A model generated the notes under the pieces. The model was given only the letters and a program-made list of their open reading frames with translations. It ran no database searches and was not told where the DNA came from. From an uncultured Chloroflexia bacterium (GTDB taxonomy: Bacteria; Chloroflexota; Ktedonobacteria; Ktedonobacterales; JADMIN01): a DNA stretch of 32,000 bases. Shown here one piece after another: positions 4,074-32,000 of this stretch. Location of the stretch: assembly GCA_963718915.1 (NCBI GenBank), contig CAVRAI010000015.1, positions 570,001-602,000 of the forward strand. Direction: 5' to 3'. A program made the translations under genes and the position numbers. Numbering within the stretch: the first letter of the stretch is position 1; the number at the start of each line of letters is the position of its first letter.

Positions 4074-4180
4074 CGCCGTAGCCTGAAGGCCACGGCTAAT
4101 TCCAAAACGGCCGCACCAGCCGCCCGAGCAAAAGAGGGCTGGTGCGGCCAGGATTAGCCGCAGGGCTTTAGCCTGCGGCG
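4074..4180. repeat. Composite REP/MITE-like element: two inverted 30-nt hairpin arms flanking a central 13-bp-stem hairpin
   Basis: Left arm 4074-4103 is CGCCGTAGCCTGAAGGCCACGGCTAATTCC. Right arm 4151-4180 is GGATTAGCCGCAGGGCTTTAGCCTGCGGCG (reverse-complement orientation). Related arms occur at 21715, 21791, 27342 and 28804. Confidence 0.8.
4104..4149 (-). terminator. Rho-independent-type terminator for the methyltransferase gene
   Basis: Perfect 13-bp stem GGCCGCACCAGCC (4109-4121) / GGCTGGTGCGGCC (4137-4149) with a 15-nt loop. On the minus strand it is followed by GTTTTGG (4104-4108 region). Confidence 0.6.
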
Positions 4181-21714: not shown

Positions 21715-21817
21715 CGCCGTAGGCTGAAGACCTACGGCTAATCCCGCCGCGGGCGCGGTCACCTGCCCTTATACACGGCGTTGCGCTTCGGGATTAGCCG
21801 CGGCATTCATGTCGCGG
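21715..21817. repeat. Second composite REP/MITE-like element, splitting the heme cluster between hemD and hemB
   Basis: Left arm 21715-21744 is CGCCGTAGGCTGAAGACCTACGGCTAATCC. Degenerate inverted right arm 21791-21817 is GGATTAGCCGCGGCATTCATGTCGCGG. Confidence 0.7.
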
Positions 21818-26050: not shown

Positions 26051-27208
26051 TTACCTGCTCACCTCGCTGGGCGGCTTTGTGCCGACATAGACGACGCCAT
26101 CGCGCACCTCGACCTGATAGGTCGGCACCGGAGCGCTGGCGACGCCATCCACGACCTTGCCCGTCTCCAGATCGTACTGGGCAAAGTGCCAGGGGCAGGT
26201 GACGATGCACGCGCCGTCGCCGATGGATAGCTCGCCCTCGCTCAGCGGCCCGCGCGCGTGGGAGCAGCGGTTGCCGATGGCGTAGAAACGTCCGCCCGCG
26301 TGGAAGAGCGCCACCTGCTGGCCGTTGAGATAGACCACCCGCGTCGTGCCCTCGGCAATATCCTCGACGGGCGCGACATCTATCCACGCCTCGACGTACT
26401 TCTCGGCCTGGCGCGGCTTCGCGATCTTTGGCCCGCCCAGCGCATCAAGCGTCTCCGCCAGCGTCATGCGAATGCAGCTATAGAGCGGCGTATCGCGCAG
26501 GGTATACATGCTGGACTCAGTATCACGTAGTTCCTGCACCAGATCGAGGAAGTCGGAGGGTTCATCGGTCTCGAAGGCAACCACGAATTCCTGGTCGTCC
26601 AGCCCGAACGAGTAGGTGGTATTCAGCTTGACCGCCGGATATTTGCGGCCAATGCGGATGTGCTCATCCATAACCGCCTGACGCTCTTCCATCGGAAGGC
26701 GATACCAGGGCCGTGTCTTGACGAATGGGTAGACGAAGAGATATTTGGCGTCGCTGGGCGAGATGACCAGCCGCTCGGCATCCTCGTCGGGGTTGTCGCG
26801 AATCTCGTAGATCGAGCGTTTGGTCTGCGAGAGATACGACGAACCCAGGCGCAGGTAGCCGCCGATAGTGGTTGAGAGAATCGCCGTCGCCAGCTCCTGG
26901 ATTGGTTCGAGCGATTCGGCGACCTGCCAGAGCAGCAGTTCGGCGTCGGCGCGGGTGCCCATCAGGCTATATGGCCGCATCAACATCTGGCGATGAAACG
27001 ACTCAATCGTCTCGACCAGTTCCAGCTTCTGCTGCTTCTGGCGCTCGGCGGGCAGACGTCGCCACTGTGGGTCGATGGTGTAGAAGGCGAAACGAACGTA
27101 CTGGCGCTTCGTCGGCTTCGGATGCGCGGCGGGCTTTGGCGCGGCGGCAGGCGCGCTTTGTGATCGTTGAGGCCGCTGGGTTCGTTGGGTGGTGATATTC
27201 TGGGCCAT
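26051..27208 (-). CDS. hemQ: Chlorite-dismutase-family coproheme decarboxylase (HemQ/ChdC) fused to a C-terminal Rieske [2Fe-2S] domain
   Basis: HemQ part: YVRFAFYTIDPQW, YLFVYPFVKTRPWYRLPMEERQAVMDEHIRIG, TYSFGLDDQEFVVAFETDEPSDFLDLV. The last ~116 aa (26054-26401) are NirD-like Rieske: CSH (26258-26266) and CPWH (26186-26197). One continuous frame. Confidence 0.85.
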   Translation of the reverse strand: MAQNITTQRTQRPQRSQSAPAAAPKPAAHPKPTKRQYVRFAFYTIDPQWRRLPAERQKQQKLELVETIESFHRQMLMRPYSLMGTRADAELLLWQVAESLEPIQELATAILSTTIGGYLRLGSSYLSQTKRSIYEIRDNPDEDAERLVISPSDAKYLFVYPFVKTRPWYRLPMEERQAVMDEHIRIGRKYPAVKLNTTYSFGLDDQEFVVAFETDEPSDFLDLVQELRDTESSMYTLRDTPLYSCIRMTLAETLDALGGPKIAKPRQAEKYVEAWIDVAPVEDIAEGTTRVVYLNGQQVALFHAGGRFYAIGNRCSHARGPLSEGELSIGDGACIVTCPWHFAQYDLETGKVVDGVASAPVPTYQVEVRDGVVYVGTKPPSEVSR

Positions 27209-27341
27209 TGGCTATCTTTTCACGTTAACGCACAGGTTAAGCAAAATCACTTACACTATACCGGAACAGGCAAGACTACGCTAGTGGCGGCCAGAGTGGC
27301 TATGGATGGCGCGGGAGGGCTAGATTACTCTGGGGCAACCA

Positions 27342-27371
27342 CGCCGCAGGCTGAAGCCCTGCGGCTAATCC
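27342..27371 (+). repeat. Solo REP-like hairpin arm
   Basis: CGCCGCAGGCTGAAGCCCTGCGGCTAATCC, lying between the hemQ start and the FHA gene stop. Confidence 0.8.
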
Positions 27372-27380
27372 TTAATCATG

Positions 27381-28040
27381 TTAGAAGCCGCCGAAGACAA
27401 ATAATGTCTGCCCAATCTTAATTTCGTCTTCTTCGTCCAGTACATGCTGACTGATTCGCTGGTCATTGACTATTGTGCCATTGGCGCTGTTCTCGTCGTG
27501 CAACAGATAGCGGCCATTGGGCTGCCGGTTGATGGTGGCGTGTATGCGTGAGACCTGCAAGTCATCAAGGAAGACGTCGCTCTCGCGGCTGCGCCCGATG
27601 GTGATGCGGTCTTTGCGCAGGTCGTAGGAGCGCCCCTGTTCTTTGCCCTCTCTGACCACCAGCTTCGGCTTGCCCCGATTGGACGTCGGCCGCAAGACGT
27701 AGGTGCTTTGGTTGTCGGCATAGGCAGCATTGCCAAAGCCCTTCCAGCTATCGTACGCGCCCGCAGGGGCAGGCGCACCCCAATCCTGATTGGGCGGAGT
27801 CGGCCTGGCGGGTGGATTGTTCCAGTCATTGCCTGCAGCAGGAGCGCTCGTTCCGTCAGCATCATTCAGGGCGCCAACTCGACAGCGGGAGTGCCCCACC
27901 CGGCGGCCGCCTGCGCGGCTGGCGGGCTGCCCCACTGTGGCTGCTGCCCTATGGTATCTGGCGGGCCGCCCCACTGGGGAACAGACCCCTGCTGGTCGCC
28001 CCACCCCCGGCTTGGTGACGGAGGCTGGTCTTCTTCCCAT
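27381..28040 (-). CDS. FHA-domain protein (ORF as it stands; only about 27381-27875 is homologous to the FHA paralog, the N-terminal ~55 codons look out-of-frame)
   Basis: FHA core RITIGRSRESDVFLDDLQVSRIHATINRQPNGRYLLHDENSANGTIVNDQRI. Colinear with the 31006-32000 paralog from AAGNDWNNPP onward. The N-terminal MGRRPASVTKPGVGRPAG.. is Arg-rich junk overlapping the other two frames. Confidence 0.75.
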   Translation of the reverse strand: MGRRPASVTKPGVGRPAGVCSPVGRPARYHRAAATVGQPASRAGGRRVGHSRCRVGALNDADGTSAPAAGNDWNNPPARPTPPNQDWGAPAPAGAYDSWKGFGNAAYADNQSTYVLRPTSNRGKPKLVVREGKEQGRSYDLRKDRITIGRSRESDVFLDDLQVSRIHATINRQPNGRYLLHDENSANGTIVNDQRISQHVLDEEDEIKIGQTLFVFGGF

Positions 28041-28057
28041 TCGTCATCCAATTCCAT
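27866..28057 (-). other. WG-rich linker segment in a third frame (fragment of the disrupted TIR/FHA locus)
   Basis: ELDDEWEEDQPPSPSRGWGDQQGSVPQWGGPPDTIGQQPQWGSPPAAQAAAGWG aligns with GWGEQQGTVPQWGGPPDSMGQQPQWSGQPAAPAPAGWG of the downstream paralog. The underlying DNA (27903-27979 vs 31582-31658) aligns without gaps. Confidence 0.65.
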
Positions 28058-28653
28058 TCGTCATCCAATTCGTCATCCAATTCGTCATCCAATTCGTCAT
28101 CCAATTCGTCATCCAATTCGTCATCCAATTCGTCATCCAATTCGTCATCCAAGTCCTGCTCATCCCAATCAGATTCGATTATTCCGCTTCCTCCACTATC
28201 GGCCTTAGAAGGCGCAAGTGCGGAGTGAGCTACTAAGTTACCGGCTATTTCACCTTGCCGCATTAACCGTTGACGTAATTGTTGCAGACCATGATATTCG
28301 TCAACCTGCATATCTATATATTGTAGCTCCACCAGCAGCATCGGGATCCGCTCTACTTGGTGCAGCAAGACAGGAATAATGGGCTTACCCAATTGTTGCG
28401 AAAAGAACAACTCCCTTCTCACCCAGGGCGAGGCCACAGCCTCGGGCGAGAGGCCAACCACAACGACATCGCTCGTTTGAATAGCGAGCTCGATCTGTGC
28501 CACCCACTTGTCGCCACCCTCCAGATGCGCACGATCAACCCAGGTGCGAAAGCCATAGCTAATCAGTTTCGCCTCCAGTCGATCTATGGTCGTGCTATCG
28601 GCGCGGGCGTAGCTGATGAAGACGCTGATTGGCTGATTCACAGGTGCCACCAT
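27949..28653 (-). CDS. TIR-domain protein with C-terminal (DDEL)8 acidic repeat (ORF as it stands)
   Basis: ISVFISYARADS, GGDKWVAQIELAI, VVVVGLSPEAVASPWVRRELFF (conserved Glu at 28411-28413), GKPIIPVLL: a TIR_2-type layout. SD GGAG upstream of ATG 28653. The tail after DDEW (NWMTNGKKTSLRHQ..) looks like frame run-on. Confidence 0.8.
   Translation of the reverse strand: MVAPVNQPISVFISYARADSTTIDRLEAKLISYGFRTWVDRAHLEGGDKWVAQIELAIQTSDVVVVGLSPEAVASPWVRRELFFSQQLGKPIIPVLLHQVERIPMLLVELQYIDMQVDEYHGLQQLRQRLMRQGEIAGNLVAHSALAPSKADSGGSGIIESDWDEQDLDDELDDELDDELDDELDDELDDELDDELDDEWNWMTNGKKTSLRHQAGGGATSRGLFPSGAARQIP
28040..28152. repeat. Tandem 12-nt repeat TTCGTCATCCAA (minus strand: LDDE), 8 perfect copies, then a 5-nt partial unit and a ninth copy
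   Basis: Units at 28057, 28069, 28081, 28093, 28105, 28117, 28129 and 28141. Orphan TTCCA at 28052-28056. Extra unit at 28040-28051. Confidence 0.95.
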
Positions 28654-28803
28654 ACCATATGCTCCTGCGCGTTCATAGGGGCCGCAAGCGTGCCATCAGT
28701 ATAGCATGGAATTGCTTTAGTTCACAGCCGCTTTATGATGATGGAAACCATAACATTGCCTGCTGTGCTTCAATTTTGCCAGATGCGGGATATGGCGTGT
28801 TCA

Positions 28804-28833
28804 GGCTTAGCCGCAGGGCTTCAGCCTGCGGCG
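28804..28833 (-). repeat. Solo REP-like hairpin arm (inverse orientation)
   Basis: GGCTTAGCCGCAGGGCTTCAGCCTGCGGCG. Its reverse complement matches the 27342 copy except for one base in the TAATCC tail. Confidence 0.8.
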
Positions 28834-29082
28834 CGTGAATCATAGGTATCTGTTTAACCTGTGGGACGACATTGTACTTCCAACCTCACGCCAGCACCGG
28901 CTCGGCCAGCGTCCACAATGCTTCACCGATTCATCTGGCGTAGCAATCCAGGCCATTGCCCACGTTATAAATGACCGATTTTGTGCGGCGCTCTCAGATA
29001 GTACACTGTGTCGCGTGGAGTGCATGAGGGGGCGAGCGCCCCAGCGACGACCATACATAAGTGAAGAAGAAGGAGCAGACAG

Positions 29083-29679
29083 ATGCGCAAGATCGTTGTC
29101 TCAGAGTTTGTGACGCTGGATGGGGTCATGCAGGCGCCGGGCGGCAAGGATGAGGATACCGAGGGTGGGTTCGCCTATGGCGGGTGGACGTGGCCCTATT
29201 GGGACGACGGGATTGGCGCCCACTTTGCCGAGGTGATGAGCGAGAGCGATGCCATGCTCCTGGGGCGCAAGACGTGGCAGATCCACGGCGGCGCCTTCGA
29301 GCCGATGGCGGCGGGCGACCCATTTGGCGACGCAATGAACGCAATGCCGAAGTACGTCGTCTCCACCACCCTGACCGATACCTCGGCCTGGCGGAACTCC
29401 ACCCTCATCAGCGGCAATGTGGCGGAAGAGGTGCGCGCCCTGAAGACGCAGCCGGGCAAGAATATCATCATCGATGGCAGCAGCGTCCTCATCCATACCC
29501 TGGCGCGGAACGACCTGATTGATGAGTACCGCCTGGTCGTCTACCCGCTGGCGCTGGGCGGCGGCAAGAAGGTGTTCCCAGACGGGGTGCGGCTCAACCT
29601 GCGGCTCGTCGAGGCACATTCCCTTCCTTCCGGGGTCGTGCTGACGCATTATACGGTGGAGCGCTCCGCATCGGCGTAG
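29083..29679 (+). CDS. Dihydrofolate reductase family protein (RibD C-terminal domain)
   Basis: MRKIVVSEFVTLDGVMQAPGG, LLGRKTW, PKYVVSTTL, IIIDGSSVLIHTLARNDLIDEYRLVVYPLALGGGKKVF. SD GAAGGAG upstream. Confidence 0.85.
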   Translation: MRKIVVSEFVTLDGVMQAPGGKDEDTEGGFAYGGWTWPYWDDGIGAHFAEVMSESDAMLLGRKTWQIHGGAFEPMAAGDPFGDAMNAMPKYVVSTTLTDTSAWRNSTLISGNVAEEVRALKTQPGKNIIIDGSSVLIHTLARNDLIDEYRLVVYPLALGGGKKVFPDGVRLNLRLVEAHSLPSGVVLTHYTVERSASA

Positions 29680-29721
29680 TAGGCGCTGAGGGGTGTAGCA
29701 ACGGTGTTGGCGGCTGGCGCT

Positions 29722-30969
29722 TCACCCAAGTGAGTTGCCACACTTGGTGCAGAAGCGGACTCCTGCCGCATTGCGTGTGCCGCAGCGGCTGCAAGCGCGC
29801 CCGACAACTCCGGTGAGCAGGGAATTGCCGCAGGTGGTGCAGAAGCGGTCGATGGCGCGATTGGGCTGGTGACAGTTGGGGCACGTCACCCACGACTCCG
29901 GGTTACCAGTGGCTGGAGCGGGCTTGCGCGGAACGGAAACCGAGCCAGTGCCCAGGGGTGCGCCACAGGTCGTGCAGAAGCGCTGCTGTGGGGCATTGGG
30001 CGCGCCACACTTCGCGCACGTGACCATCGAGGCAGGCCCGCGCCCGCCAGTGACACGTGGCGCCGGGACGGGAAGCGGCTTCTGGGAGTCCATCGCCTCC
30101 GAGAGCGCCAGCGCCATGTCGGTCGCCTGCTGGAAGCGTTCGGAGGGGTCTTTTTCGAGCGCCTTCATCACGACCGCCTGCACCGCTGGCGAGACGCGCG
30201 GATTACGGGTGGAGGGTAGCGGCGCTGGCTCGTAGATATGCGAGTGCGCCAGCGCGGTGTAGTTGTCGGCCTCGAAGGGGGTATGGCTCGTCAGCATCTC
30301 GTAGAGCATCACGCCGAGCGCATAGATATCGCTGCGCGCGTCCACCATCGCGCCGCGACACTGCTCCGGCGACATGTATTCCGGCGTGCCGACGCCCGCG
30401 CCGGTATGTGTGATGACATTCGAGCTGGCGATCATCTTCGCGATGCCGAAGTCGCTAAGGACGACACGGCGGCTGGCCGTTTCCTTGCCGTTGCCATCCA
30501 CCCGTCGCTGGGTATCCATCAACACATTCACCGGCTTGACATCACGATGGACGATGCCCTGCGCATGCGCATATGAGAGCGCGGAGGCCAGGTCGTGGAT
30601 GATGGGCGGAATATCGGCGAAGGTGAACGGGCGGCTCTCCATGTAATCTTTCAGATTGCCACCAGCGATATATTCCATCGTAATGAACAGGTGGCCCAGT
30701 TCGCGGCCAGCATCATGCACCACGAGGATATTGGGGTGCGTGAGCCGCGCCATCGCCCGCGACTCGATTTTGAAGCGCTCGACGAAGGCAGGATCGGCGG
30801 CATAGTAGGGTGGCAGCACCTTCACAGCGACACGACGGTCGAGGTGCGCCTGATAGGCGCGATAGACCCGGGCCATGCCGCCCTGGCCTATCAACTCCTC
30901 GATCACACAATGGCCGAGCGTCTTGCCAATCAGTTCGTCAACGCCCTGGTCATCAACCTGTTCTGCCAC
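29722..30969 (-). CDS. Hanks-type Ser/Thr protein kinase with three C-terminal zinc-ribbon repeats
   Basis: GQGGMARVY, VAVKVL, HRDVKPVN, SDFGIAK, GTPEYMSPEQ. The C-terminus (29725-30030) has three repeats: CAKCG..FCTTCG, CPNCH..FCTTCG, CSRCG..FCTKCG. No TM segment seen. Confidence 0.9.
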   Translation of the reverse strand: MAEQVDDQGVDELIGKTLGHCVIEELIGQGGMARVYRAYQAHLDRRVAVKVLPPYYAADPAFVERFKIESRAMARLTHPNILVVHDAGRELGHLFITMEYIAGGNLKDYMESRPFTFADIPPIIHDLASALSYAHAQGIVHRDVKPVNVLMDTQRRVDGNGKETASRRVVLSDFGIAKMIASSNVITHTGAGVGTPEYMSPEQCRGAMVDARSDIYALGVMLYEMLTSHTPFEADNYTALAHSHIYEPAPLPSTRNPRVSPAVQAVVMKALEKDPSERFQQATDMALALSEAMDSQKPLPVPAPRVTGGRGPASMVTCAKCGAPNAPQQRFCTTCGAPLGTGSVSVPRKPAPATGNPESWVTCPNCHQPNRAIDRFCTTCGNSLLTGVVGRACSRCGTRNAAGVRFCTKCGNSLG

Positions 30970-31005
30970 CCGCGCTGCCCTTCTTGCGGAGAACGCCCGG
31001 CCGCG

Positions 31006-32000
31006 CTAGCGGTAGACGAAGACCAGCAACGTCTGGCCCACCTGGATCTTGTCGCCGTCCTCCAGCATGTGCTCGGAGACGCGCTGGCCATTGACGAGCG
31101 TGCCGTTCGCGCTCTGCTCGTCACGCAGCAGATAGCGGCCATTCTGCTGCCGGTTGATCGTCGTGTGGGTGCGCGAGACGGCCAGGTCTTCGAGGAAGAC
31201 ATCGCTCTCGCGGCTGCGCCCGATGGTGATGCGGTCTTTGCGCACGTCGTAGGAGCGGCCCTGTTCTTTGCCTTCCTGCACGACCAGTTTCGGCTCGCCC
31301 TGCCCCGTCTGTGGCCGCACGACATAGGTGCGCTGGTCCTCGGTGTAGGCGCCATTGCCATAGCCCTGCTGACCGCTGTACGCGCCAGCTGGAGCAGCGG
31401 CGCCCCAATCCTGACTGGGAGCAGTCGGGCTGGCGGGCGGATTGTTCCAGTTGGGGGCGCCCTGCGGCGCGGGCTGATCCCAGGCCTGTTGTGGCGCGGG
31501 CTGCTGGTTCCACCCCTGTTGCGGGTCTGGTGGACGTTGATTCCAGTCGCTGCCCGCGGCGGGAGCGCCCCCGCCCCACCCGGCAGGCGCCGGTGCGGCT
31601 GGCTGACCGCTCCATTGTGGCTGCTGGCCCATACTATCTGGCGGGCCGCCCCACTGGGGAACGGTACCCTGCTGCTCGCCCCATCCCTGGCCTGATGGTG
31701 GTCCCCATCCGCCTGGAGCGCTACCACGTCCAGCGTTCGCCGCGGCTGGCGCGCCCTGATTCCCGTAGGATGCCCAGTCGCTAGAGGCGGCCGGTCCGGC
31801 ATTCGGACGGCTCGCGGGGCCACTGTAGTCCTCGCCCCAGCCGCCGCCTGGACGCGAACGGCCGGGCTGGCTCACAGGCGCGCGCGACTGGCCGTATGGC
31901 CCCTGATTCGCATCGTAGCCAATGCCGCGCGATGTCTTTTTCGCGTCACCATTGCTGCGCAGCACCATCACGAACACCAGAAGGATCGCGATGATGACGA
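31006..32000 (-). CDS. FHA-domain protein with N-terminal TM anchor and long W/G/Q/P-rich linker, 5'-partial (runs off the right edge)
   Basis: The frame stays open to nt 32000 (..VIIAILLVFVMVLRSNGD = TM helix). FHA core RITIGRSRESDVFLEDLAVSRTHTTINRQQNGRYLLRDEQSANGTLVNGQRV. Stop is 36 nt upstream of the kinase start. Confidence 0.85.
   Translation of the reverse strand, partial: VIIAILLVFVMVLRSNGDAKKTSRGIGYDANQGPYGQSRAPVSQPGRSRPGGGWGEDYSGPASRPNAGPAASSDWASYGNQGAPAAANAGRGSAPGGWGPPSGQGWGEQQGTVPQWGGPPDSMGQQPQWSGQPAAPAPAGWGGGAPAAGSDWNQRPPDPQQGWNQQPAPQQAWDQPAPQGAPNWNNPPASPTAPSQDWGAAAPAGAYSGQQGYGNGAYTEDQRTYVVRPQTGQGEPKLVVQEGKEQGRSYDVRKDRITIGRSRESDVFLEDLAVSRTHTTINRQQNGRYLLRDEQSANGTLVNGQRVSEHMLEDGDKIQVGQTLLVFVYR

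Follow-up and report, generated by a model that had tools for sequence, protein, structure and literature searches.

A twice-broken TIR-FHA reading frame beside a conserved FHA-kinase operon of the Ktedonobacteria

We analysed a 32,000-nucleotide (nt) stretch of contig CAVRAI010000015.1 from an uncultured Chloroflexia bacterium of the Ktedonobacterales (positions 570,001 to 602,000; hereafter the window), and in particular the region 27381-32000, in which four open reading frames (ORFs) lie on the minus strand: an FHA-domain protein (FHA2), a Hanks-type Ser/Thr kinase, a TIR-domain ORF and a second FHA ORF (FHA1). A first-pass annotation, made from the letters alone, had read these genes as a candidate signalling module in which the kinase could recruit or regulate the TIR effector through an FHA domain. 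The components that it named, that is, a TIR domain retaining the conserved Glu, an FHA domain, a soluble Hanks kinase that ends in three zinc ribbons, and a membrane FHA protein, are all present where it had placed them. The kinase and the TIR ORF are separated by a plus-strand RibD_C gene (29083-29679) that it did not mention. Throughout, profile matches are to Pfam with its curated cut-offs, equivalog tests use NCBIfam, and defence models are those of PADLOC; L-numbers (e.g. L004) denote the genome loci compared and P-numbers (e.g. P0007) database proteins. From the window end towards the hemQ operon, the features are the following, where aa stands for amino acids, TM for transmembrane, TRF for Tandem Repeats Finder and REP for repetitive extragenic palindrome.

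31006..32000 (runs past the window end), minus strand: FHA2, with a TM helix (cut off), a Pro/Gln/Trp/Gly-rich linker and a C-terminal FHA domain
29722..30969, minus strand: Hanks-type Ser/Thr kinase, Pkinase E 7e-49, with a triple zinc-ribbon tail at ~29725-30030
29083..29679, plus strand: RibD_C (dihydrofolate-reductase-like) gene, Pfam RibD_C E 5e-25
28800..28833, unstranded: REP-like hairpin, a 34-nt inverted repeat in the 430-nt low-GC region upstream of TIR
27949..28653, minus strand: TIR ORF of 234 aa, TIR_2 E 3e-25, with TIR at ~28276-28623, (DELD)8 and a 34-aa out-of-frame tail
28056..28152, minus strand: 12-nt tandem repeat, 8.1 copies, encoding (DELD)8; TRF 100% matches, score 194
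28037..28071, minus strand: 17-nt tandem duplication, GAATTGGATGACGAATG x2; TRF period 17, 2.1 copies, 100% matches
27866..28036, minus strand: FHA2-derived linker in the third frame, …EEDQPPSPSRGWGDQQGSVPQWGGPPDTIGQQPQWG…; ORF 27866-28057, TGA at 27866
27381..28040, minus strand: FHA1 ORF of up to 219 aa, Pfam FHA E 1e-19, with the FHA domain at ~27411-27605
27342..27375, unstranded: REP-like hairpin just past the FHA1 stop, ahead of the hemQ operon; inverted partner of 28800-28833

The FHA2-kinase operon and the TIR domain

FHA2 matches the Pfam FHA profile with E 2e-18 (66.8 bits against a cut-off of 20.7). Judged by its window part alone it looks soluble, but its ORF is open without a stop at the window end, where it reads '...VIIAILLVFVMVL' and continues upstream as VIIAILL. 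The database protein P0015 (360 aa) is identical to FHA2 across the residues encoded in the window and carries an N-terminal TM helix, as does the FHA2 orthologue of L004 (residues 23-41, Kyte-Doolittle (KD) hydropathy 3.33), which bears out the earlier description of FHA2 as a membrane protein. FHA2 is the first gene of the FHA2-kinase pair inside the window, with the kinase starting 36 nt past the FHA2 stop. The Pkinase match of the latter reaches 167 bits, the catalytic motifs VAVK, HRDVKPVN, DFG and TPEYMSPE are legible in the translation, and its zinc ribbons match Zn_Ribbon_1, DZR and Zn_ribbon_3 in three stretches. The kinase contains no hydrophobic or TM segment, its maximum KD19 being 1.25.

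A scan of the genome collection recovered full-length kinase orthologues, 45-80% identical, throughout the Ktedonobacteria, the best of them in L004 (80%). FHA2 stands immediately upstream of the kinase in L001-L017 and L021, among them Thermogemmatispora and Dictyobacter. Five TIR queries gave no match at the FHA2-kinase loci, and every species-representative Ktedonobacteria locus with at least 2 kb of flank downstream of the kinase was free of TIR (15/15). The order in L004 is a kinase-FHA fusion, FHA2, kinase, hemQ, hemH and hemA; the gene upstream of FHA2 in that locus (L004 657-1829) encodes a Hanks kinase with a C-terminal FHA domain of its own. The conserved cluster probably comprises kinase-FHA, TM-FHA and kinase-zinc ribbon genes, with the window stopping before the first position. 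FHA2 and the kinase make up a conserved chromosomal Ser/Thr phospho-signalling pair, a core operon of the Ktedonobacteria that exists independently of any TIR. The first-pass annotation had counted an FHA2-kinase pair without the TIR gene in relatives as a finding that would speak against its module, and this is largely what the 15 loci display; conserved co-localisation of the TIR, the kinase subtype and the FHA protein is not seen, the TIR being present only in the window, L088 and L092/L093.

The TIR ORF matches TIR_2 (PF13676) over residues 11-126, with 89.4 bits against a cut-off of 28. Residue E81, which sits in the sequence 'SPWVRRE' and follows the 'S.W' motif of helix alpha-C, falls in the same alignment column as the W..E(L) Glu of the AbTIR, SARM1 and TLR TIR chains, the catalytic residue of TIR NAD+ hydrolases (NADases); E81 is invariant in a 35-sequence family alignment, where it forms one of four invariant columns. 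An AlphaFold2 model of TIR residues 1-140 (pLDDT 86.4, pTM 0.81) was matched by Foldseek to SPARTA TIR-APAZ with a probability of 1.00 and a TMq of 0.75-0.80, and also to SARM1 and AbTir, the TMq range across the TIR domains of the three being 0.66-0.80. With the invariant E81 and this predicted flavodoxin-like fold, the TIR looks competent. It is 76% identical to P0008 and 62-72% identical to the other TIR domains of its clade (clade I, below), with a pairwise ratio of nonsynonymous to synonymous substitution rates (dN/dS) of 0.13-0.17; dN on the window branch is about twice that of its L088 relative. The interval of about 1 kb between TIR and kinase that had been noted is not empty: it is occupied by the RibD_C gene on the opposite strand, which places the TIR outside the kinase operon.

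The TIR-FHA1 junction and the origin of FHA1

The TIR and FHA1 had been described as fused or adjacent. An FHA domain does follow the TIR, but the arrangement is neither a clean fusion nor plain adjacency, since the two ORFs are in different frames and overlap by 92 nt. The TIR ORF crosses the (DELD)8 repeat and then the 17-nt duplication, and ends in the 34-residue tail, for which we found similarity to nothing. A third frame, 27866-28057, reads 'ELDDEWEEDQPPSPSRGWGDQQGSVPQWGGPPDTIGQQPQWG…' and parallels the linker of FHA2. Deleting one 17-nt copy brings the TIR into frame with this FHA2-like linker, which stops at 27866; the second lesion is a -1 shift within 27866-27988. Removal of one 17-nt copy together with a 1-nt insertion anywhere in 27866-27988 yields a single ORF of 418 aa that reads TIR-(DELD)8-linker-FHA. 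In other words, the TIR-FHA1 frame as sequenced is broken twice.

The protein database holds FHA1 separately as the 184-aa P0007, identical to the last 184 residues of the FHA1 ORF, and contains no TIR protein with the window's sequence, although the FHA1 and FHA2 sequences are there. This absence is compatible with treatment of the gene as a pseudogene and is no proof of it. Phase variation by 17-nt copy number was considered and rejected, since with three or four copies the frame closes at a stop codon after 208 aa. The chimera is most likely a recently inactivated gene, whose product is now a 234-aa TIR-only protein and, at most, a separate FHA-only protein.

FHA1 matches the Pfam FHA profile (PF00498) with 70.9 bits against the cut-off of 20.7, and its region aligns with FHA2 at the DNA level in two segments, 27893-28017 with 31573-31697 (83% identity) and 27392-27691 with 31017-31316 (77%). 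Given this identity and the parallel between the linkers, we conclude that FHA1 arose by duplication from an FHA2-type gene, of which it has the linker and the FHA domain but not the TM anchor. In a neighbour-joining tree (bootstrap values not displayed), FHA1 nests within the near FHA2 orthologues. The GR / SxxH / NG residues that bind phosphothreonine (pThr) are kept in both FHA1 and FHA2, as 'IGRSR', 'VSRIH' or 'VSRTH', and 'SANGT'.

Substitution rates were obtained by the Nei-Gojobori method over 115 FHA codons, with three-taxon branch estimates. FHA1 and FHA2 are separated by a dS of 0.72 and a dN of 0.20, and FHA2 and its L004 orthologue by a dS of 0.67 and a dN of 0.11; the branch dN/dS is ~0.36 for FHA1 and 0.15-0.17 for the FHA2 orthologues. 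Within the linker, pN/pS is lowest in the ancestral third frame (0.41, a value that rests on only 21 differences). The branch ratio of FHA1 and the linker value together indicate that the FHA1 copy was under selection for much of its history. The duplication is old, because the dS of 0.72 between FHA1 and FHA2 compares with a hemQ dS between genomes of 0.44 (to L088) and 0.63-0.73 (to L093 and L004). The perfect 17-nt duplication must be recent. Our reading is that the gene was selected for a long time and then recently inactivated, the alternative being mis-assembly.

The kinase-hemQ islet and the TIR-TPR-like family

Window positions 32000-29737 correspond to L004 1948-4249 and window 27113-23000 to L004 4616-8702, so that 2.6 kb of the window (27114-29736) replaces 366 bp of L004. 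In this locus, the closest relative among the species representatives of the collection, the kinase runs directly into hemQ and there is no TIR. Three close lineages, namely the window, L088 and L092/L093, do have a TIR of one and the same family in the kinase-hemQ interval. The islet of the window reads kinase, opposite-strand RibD_C, TIR-FHA1 and hemQ. That of L088, the closest locus by hemQ (90% identity), reads kinase, a TIR-TPR gene with a triple zinc ribbon (P0008), opposite-strand RibD_C and hemQ, and that of L092/L093 reads (FHA2,) kinase, REP hairpin, a TIR-TPR gene with two zinc ribbons (P0011) and hemQ. The RibD_C gene is convergent with the kinase and divergent from the TIR, has a 93%-identical copy in L088 and is found in neither L004 nor L092/L093; it is probably a passenger in a variable islet.

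The P0008 gene (L088 427-1719) carries a borrowed 3' end of a different kind. Its last ~57 codons (171 nt) copy the zinc-ribbon tail of the L088 kinase at 80% DNA identity, with a dS of 0.92 and a dN/dS of 0.18 (range 0.18-0.24) between the two tails; in the second zinc ribbon of P0008 one Cys has become Tyr (RFYSSCG), with the loss of a zinc ligand. The contiguity of the kinase tail with RibD_C in the window matches the contiguity of the TIR tail with RibD_C in L088. This arrangement might have come about by recombination of one tail with the other, or from an ancestor that had two TIR paralogues, of which different ones were lost in different lineages. The TIR dS of the window against L088 is saturated, despite the flanking hemQ dS of 0.44. 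The clade I TIR domains have ~53-55% GC and a third-position GC (GC3) of ~0.6, against a window average of ~63% (measured at window 28234-28653, L088 427-831, L093 1832-2236 and L089 10001-10405; L082, with 62% GC, is the exception). Taken together, the saturated TIR dS against that of hemQ and the GC of clade I suggest that the TIR alleles of the islet diverged anciently or were replaced.

Searches with the TIR alone returned only 6 distant matches, and it was a chimeric query of TIR plus FHA1 that revealed the family. In its members the N-terminal TIR is followed by a TPR-like middle domain of some 200 aa and then by a C-terminus that varies: WD40, zinc ribbons or FHA. The window copy aligns without the TPR-like middle and has an acidic (DELD)8 spacer in its place, with the C-terminal FHA1 out of frame. 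In the TIR tree there are two clades: the window falls in clade I (100% bootstrap), and clade II contains the intact FHA fusions. With P0010 as query, at least 10 more clusters (90% identity) of intact TIR-TPR-like-FHA proteins of 435-529 aa were recovered; all clusters with a source name are from Ktedonobacterales, and proteins ending in WD40 or zinc ribbons are among their close relatives. In the comparison with non-TIR proteins, the FHA domains of clade II come closest to FHA2-type FHA. Because the TIR clades are separate and the FHA domains are placed separately, FHA was joined to this TIR family at least twice. The canonical pThr-binding residues are lost in several clade II members and kept in others.

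Other clade I members sit in an Lgt-HIT-TIR-TPR(-WD40)-DinB context, and clade II members in one formed by a glycosyltransferase (GT), the TIR-FHA gene and a conserved GalT-like protein of 375-381 aa. No kinase was called near the Lgt-HIT-TIR-DinB or GT-TIR-FHA-GalT-like loci in the fetched flanks of up to 10 kb per side (L089, L096). Thus, the family appears to consist of single-gene insertions in several conserved contexts, and adjacency is therefore weaker as evidence for a functional link to the kinase.

The GalT-like gene follows each intact TIR-TPR-FHA gene examined at a distance of 16-18 nt (L096 11585-12730, L099 6318-7445, L100 3611-4738), and the same downstream gene, cut by the contig end, is seen at L087 1582-1644. 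Its product belongs to no Pfam family, contains an 'HGHAQ' (HxHxQ-like) motif and has a weak sole match in the PDB, to galactose-1-phosphate uridylyltransferase (E 0.096); a HIT-family gene precedes the clade I TIR genes in L089, L090 and L081. These nucleotide-handling, HIT-superfamily neighbours were considered as possible partners of the TIR proteins. The GalT-like proteins of L096 and L099 are 81% identical, compared with only 52-59% identity of each adjoining TIR-FHA protein to P0010, and the GalT-like neighbour therefore looks like a conserved flanking gene. In L090 (3541-5551) and L091 (173-2183), the 365-aa TIR-TPR protein P0009 overlaps by 32 nt an all-WD40 ORF of 314 aa; this pair looks like another frame-split, or programmed two-ORF, TIR-TPR-WD40 gene. 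P0103 and P0104 have the TIR-TPR-WD40 arrangement as a single protein of 670-680 aa.

The hairpins at 28800-28833 and 27342-27375 form a 34-nt inverted repeat that is 94% complementary. The underlying REP-like palindrome, GCCGCAGGCTGAAGCCCTGCGGC with a TAATCC tail (TAAGCC in the 28810 copy), occurs in four intergenic copies in both orientations (4157-4179, 21716-21738, 27343-27365 and 28810-28832), the 21716 copy with compensatory stem changes, and L092/L093 have a related copy in the stretch from kinase to TIR. Rfam has no match for the palindrome, and the first 80 loci examined contain no exact copy. A mobile cassette with the 34-nt repeats as transposon ends was rejected, as the hairpin is also present in unrelated intergenic DNA (4157, 21716) and in L092/L093; it is a genome-wide REP-like element. 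There is no transposase among the window ORFs scanned against Pfam, and no other defence genes or mobile elements were found in the window, the rest of which consists of the hem operon and ordinary metabolic and regulatory genes. HemQ (26051-27208, minus strand) is a chlorite-dismutase-like coproheme decarboxylase fused to a C-terminal Rieske [2Fe-2S] domain, a fusion that is kept in L004, L088 and L092/L093. The hemQ gene heads a long hem operon, in which hemH and hemA come next, then hemD, hemB, hemE, hemY and hemL.

Readings of the locus and known systems

We lean, by a little more than an even chance, towards a composite explanation in which an independent conserved operon adjoins a lineage-specific chimeric TIR-FHA gene that is now disrupted. 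The small variable islet between the kinase operon and the hem operon holds the RibD_C gene and one member of a Ktedonobacterales-specific family of single-gene TIR proteins, which we call TIR-TPR-like-X for its variable end. In the window copy, the TPR-like and sensor part is missing and the TIR is joined through (DELD)8 to an old duplicate of an FHA2-type linker and FHA domain. We suggest that in the intact 418-aa form and in the TIR-TPR-FHA relatives the FHA domain would dock on phosphothreonine sites produced by a Hanks kinase. FHA1 would recognise the same sites as FHA2, which probably lie on the adjacent kinase or on substrates of it. With partners that are phosphorylated several times, such docking could concentrate the TIR domains, and once oligomerised these may become active NAD+ hydrolases or signal generators, like SPARTA, SARM1 and AbTir. 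The domains, the duplication, the lesions, the synteny and the spread of the family are direct observations; the pThr docking, the oligomerisation, the NADase output and any role in defence are steps that we infer, and pThr-gated NADase chemistry in the intact TIR-FHA proteins seems to us possible, with the balance of probability against it. The kinase gating of the TIR through FHA that had been proposed therefore survives only in part: FHA1 copies the kinase partner FHA2 and intact TIR-FHA fusions exist, but there is no conserved three-gene system and the frame is broken twice.

Several points weigh against the composite explanation and its mechanism. The frameshifts could be assembly errors, as one lies in tandem-repeat and the other in low-complexity DNA. 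FHA1 has changed at sites that are invariant in FHA2 (NGQ to NDQ, GD to ED, and LAVSR to LQVSR), and its ligand may therefore differ from that of FHA2. In addition, a same-family TIR adjoins the kinase in three lineages, and two C-terminal captures were made from the operon's own genes, which hints at a functional tie that a picture of independent neighbours underplays. The strongest form of such a tie would be that family TIRs repeatedly incorporate interaction modules of the FHA2/zinc-ribbon-kinase system as integrated baits or pThr-control adaptors, the putative examples being the kinase zinc-ribbon tail in L088, the FHA2 linker and FHA in the window and the FHA2-like FHA of the intact clade. 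We consider this improbable; if true, it would amount to a bacterial counterpart of integrated-decoy immune receptors, or to a new route from kinase to TIR.

Two further explanations concern the islet as a whole. The TIR(-FHA1), the zinc-ribbon kinase and the membrane FHA2 might form one three-component conflict or defence module in which the kinase gates the TIR, as suggested by the descent of FHA1 from the kinase's own FHA partner, by the recurrence of a same-family TIR at the kinase-hemQ position of the window, L088 and L092/L093, and by the purifying selection (dN/dS 0.18) on the kinase zinc-ribbon tail copied into the L088 TIR; the kinase domain also matches the PADLOC PD-T4-6 models. However, the FHA2-kinase pair is TIR-free in 15/15 wider relatives and in L004, RibD_C, on the opposite strand, and the REP hairpins stand between the transcription units, and the TIR-FHA1 frame is doubly interrupted. 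Members of the TIR family are also found singly in unrelated contexts whose fetched flanks contain no called kinase, and the PADLOC kinase matches are generic-domain only, with no NCBIfam equivalog cut-off reached, so that we regard a single module as unlikely. The opposite extreme is a neutral by-product, with the kinase-hemQ gap a hot spot of recombination or insertion and the copied TIR tails accidental and quick to decay. This would account for an islet content that differs in each lineage (L004, L092/L093, L088 and the window), for the frameshifts of the window copy, for the missing Cys in the second zinc ribbon of P0008 (RFYSSCG) and for the REP hairpins that flank the cassette, and the saturated TIR dS against the hemQ value of 0.44 suggests replacement, not co-evolution. 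It sits poorly with the purifying selection on the captured tails (dN/dS 0.18-0.24 for the L088 zinc ribbons and 0.36 for FHA1) and with the joining of FHA to the TIR family at least two times independently, the FHA of clade II being closest to the FHA2 type, and we hold it to be doubtful.

The state of the window gene itself admits two other interpretations. If the frame breaks are assembly or consensus errors, then the gene is an intact TIR-FHA fusion and no pseudogene, and the organism would make the 418-aa TIR-(DELD)n-linker-FHA protein. Two small changes suffice to restore a single ORF, the DNA at both lesions is tandem-repeat or low-complexity, dN/dS is <1 for each of the TIR, linker and FHA parts, and the family-invariant TIR residues and the pThr-binding residues of FHA are all kept. 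Yet a base-calling error would not typically produce a perfect 17-nt duplication, the genes on either side (hem, kinase and FHA2) are full-length and free of frameshifts, dN/dS on the FHA1 branch is about twice that of FHA2 and dN on the window TIR branch about twice that of L088, and the database has a separate 184-aa FHA1 and no TIR protein with the window's sequence; an intact gene is in our view rather unlikely. Alternatively, the TIR (234 aa) and FHA1 (184-219 aa) might be translated separately and act together non-covalently. The two reading frames are both open, with an overlap of no more than 15-92 nt, key residues are kept in both domains, and the 184-aa FHA1 protein in the database has the window's sequence. 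Such a split system is nevertheless very unlikely: sequence inspection revealed no convincing ribosome-binding site or conserved start for FHA1, the N-terminal 60-90 residues of FHA1 are an out-of-frame reading of the FHA2 linker, and no relative is split in this way, all others being single polypeptides.

The composite explanation, which we continue to prefer, has implications beyond the window. An FHA-coupled TIR would tie Hanks-kinase signalling to NAD+ depletion or NAD-derived signals. The broken, lineage-specific state of the window copy beside a housekeeping-type operon lowers its own value, and intact TIR-TPR-FHA proteins (e.g. P0096 and P0099) are better test objects. The locus illustrates how new TIR architectures can originate, with the 3' ends of neighbouring genes borrowed by local duplication, a process that resembles domain integration in eukaryotic immune receptors. 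The family, with its intact TIR-TPR-FHA proteins and its TIRs bearing a kinase tail, is a new variant of TIR effector architecture and offers a testable route to phosphorylation-controlled TIR activity. Should the favoured explanation be wrong, what remains is a conserved kinase operon of the ordinary kind and, next to it, a single-gene islet in decay.

FHA domains are the phosphothreonine readers of Hanks kinases, and the closest counterpart of the operon is the actinobacterial FhaB/FipA (Rv0019c)-PknA/PknB arrangement, in which a TM-linker-FHA protein is likewise encoded beside a Hanks kinase. Both FHA proteins have their best NCBIfam matches to FhaB_Rv0019c and OdhI, and the scores against the FhaB/FipA equivalog NF049868, 74.8 and 68.5 bits, fall below its cut-off of 125. 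The kinase differs from PknB in being soluble, with a triple zinc-ribbon tail in place of the TM segment and PASTA domains; it scores 320.8 bits against the PknB/Stk1 PASTA model NF033483, below the cut-off of 450, through the kinase domain only. A further shared feature is that the FHA2-kinase pair is kept across a whole class, the Ktedonobacteria. In contrast to the FhaB-PknB modules, the part of the operon inside the window has no cell-division or PP2C genes. The match to PADLOC PD-T4-6 (E 5e-90) covers only residues 15-305, which is the generic kinase domain, in a gene that is class-wide and located beside the hem operon.

TIR NADases are activated by induced oligomerisation, as in SPARTA, SARM1 and AbTir, with Thoeris ThsB as the example from bacterial defence, and the known triggers of bacterial TIR effectors include nucleic-acid sensors, cyclic nucleotides and phage proteins. 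The window TIR has in common with SPARTA, SARM1 and AbTir the TIR_2 domain, the invariant Glu and the predicted fold. In contrast to SPARTA, Thoeris and similar systems, the window contains no Argonaute, ThsA, SAVED or STING partner, and the regulator here would be an FHA phosphopeptide reader. Thoeris (ThsA plus ThsB), like other catalogued defence systems, was rejected as an identification, the only matches being domain-level ones to ThsB_TIR and to the PADLOC ThsB model, with 34 against a cut-off of 220 for the NCBIfam Thoeris ThcB4 model; none of the annotated window ORFs encodes SIR2, SLOG or Macro. The literature searched contains no description of TIR-FHA or FHA-TIR fusions or of an FHA-regulated TIR, and no described case of a TIR controlled by Ser/Thr phosphorylation.

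Plant NLR receptors carry 'integrated decoy' domains, RRS1-WRKY being an example. By analogy, the immune-type TIR protein of the window may be seen as carrying the duplicated interaction domain of a host signalling protein. It has no NB-ARC or LRR and no sign of a pathogen effector, and comes from a different kingdom, so that we take the analogy as a lead only.

Conflict systems of multicellular bacteria include TIR effectors with superstructure-forming repeats such as TPR and WD40 (Kaur, Burroughs, Iyer and Aravind, 2020, eLife; PMC7159879), and in the passages of that paper searched FHA figures only as a sporadic effector-associated domain. As in the systems described there, the proteins of the present family have an N-terminal TIR followed by TPR-like and WD40 modules, here in a filamentous Chloroflexota lineage. 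They differ from the systems in those passages in that no STAND, MoxR-vWA or GTPase partner is fused to them or called nearby in the loci inspected, and in that the variable module can be a copy of the tail of a neighbouring kinase or of that kinase's FHA partner, an arrangement that the passages searched do not describe. The nearest conceptual relatives of the family are the TIR-plus-repeat effectors of conflict systems in multicellular bacteria.

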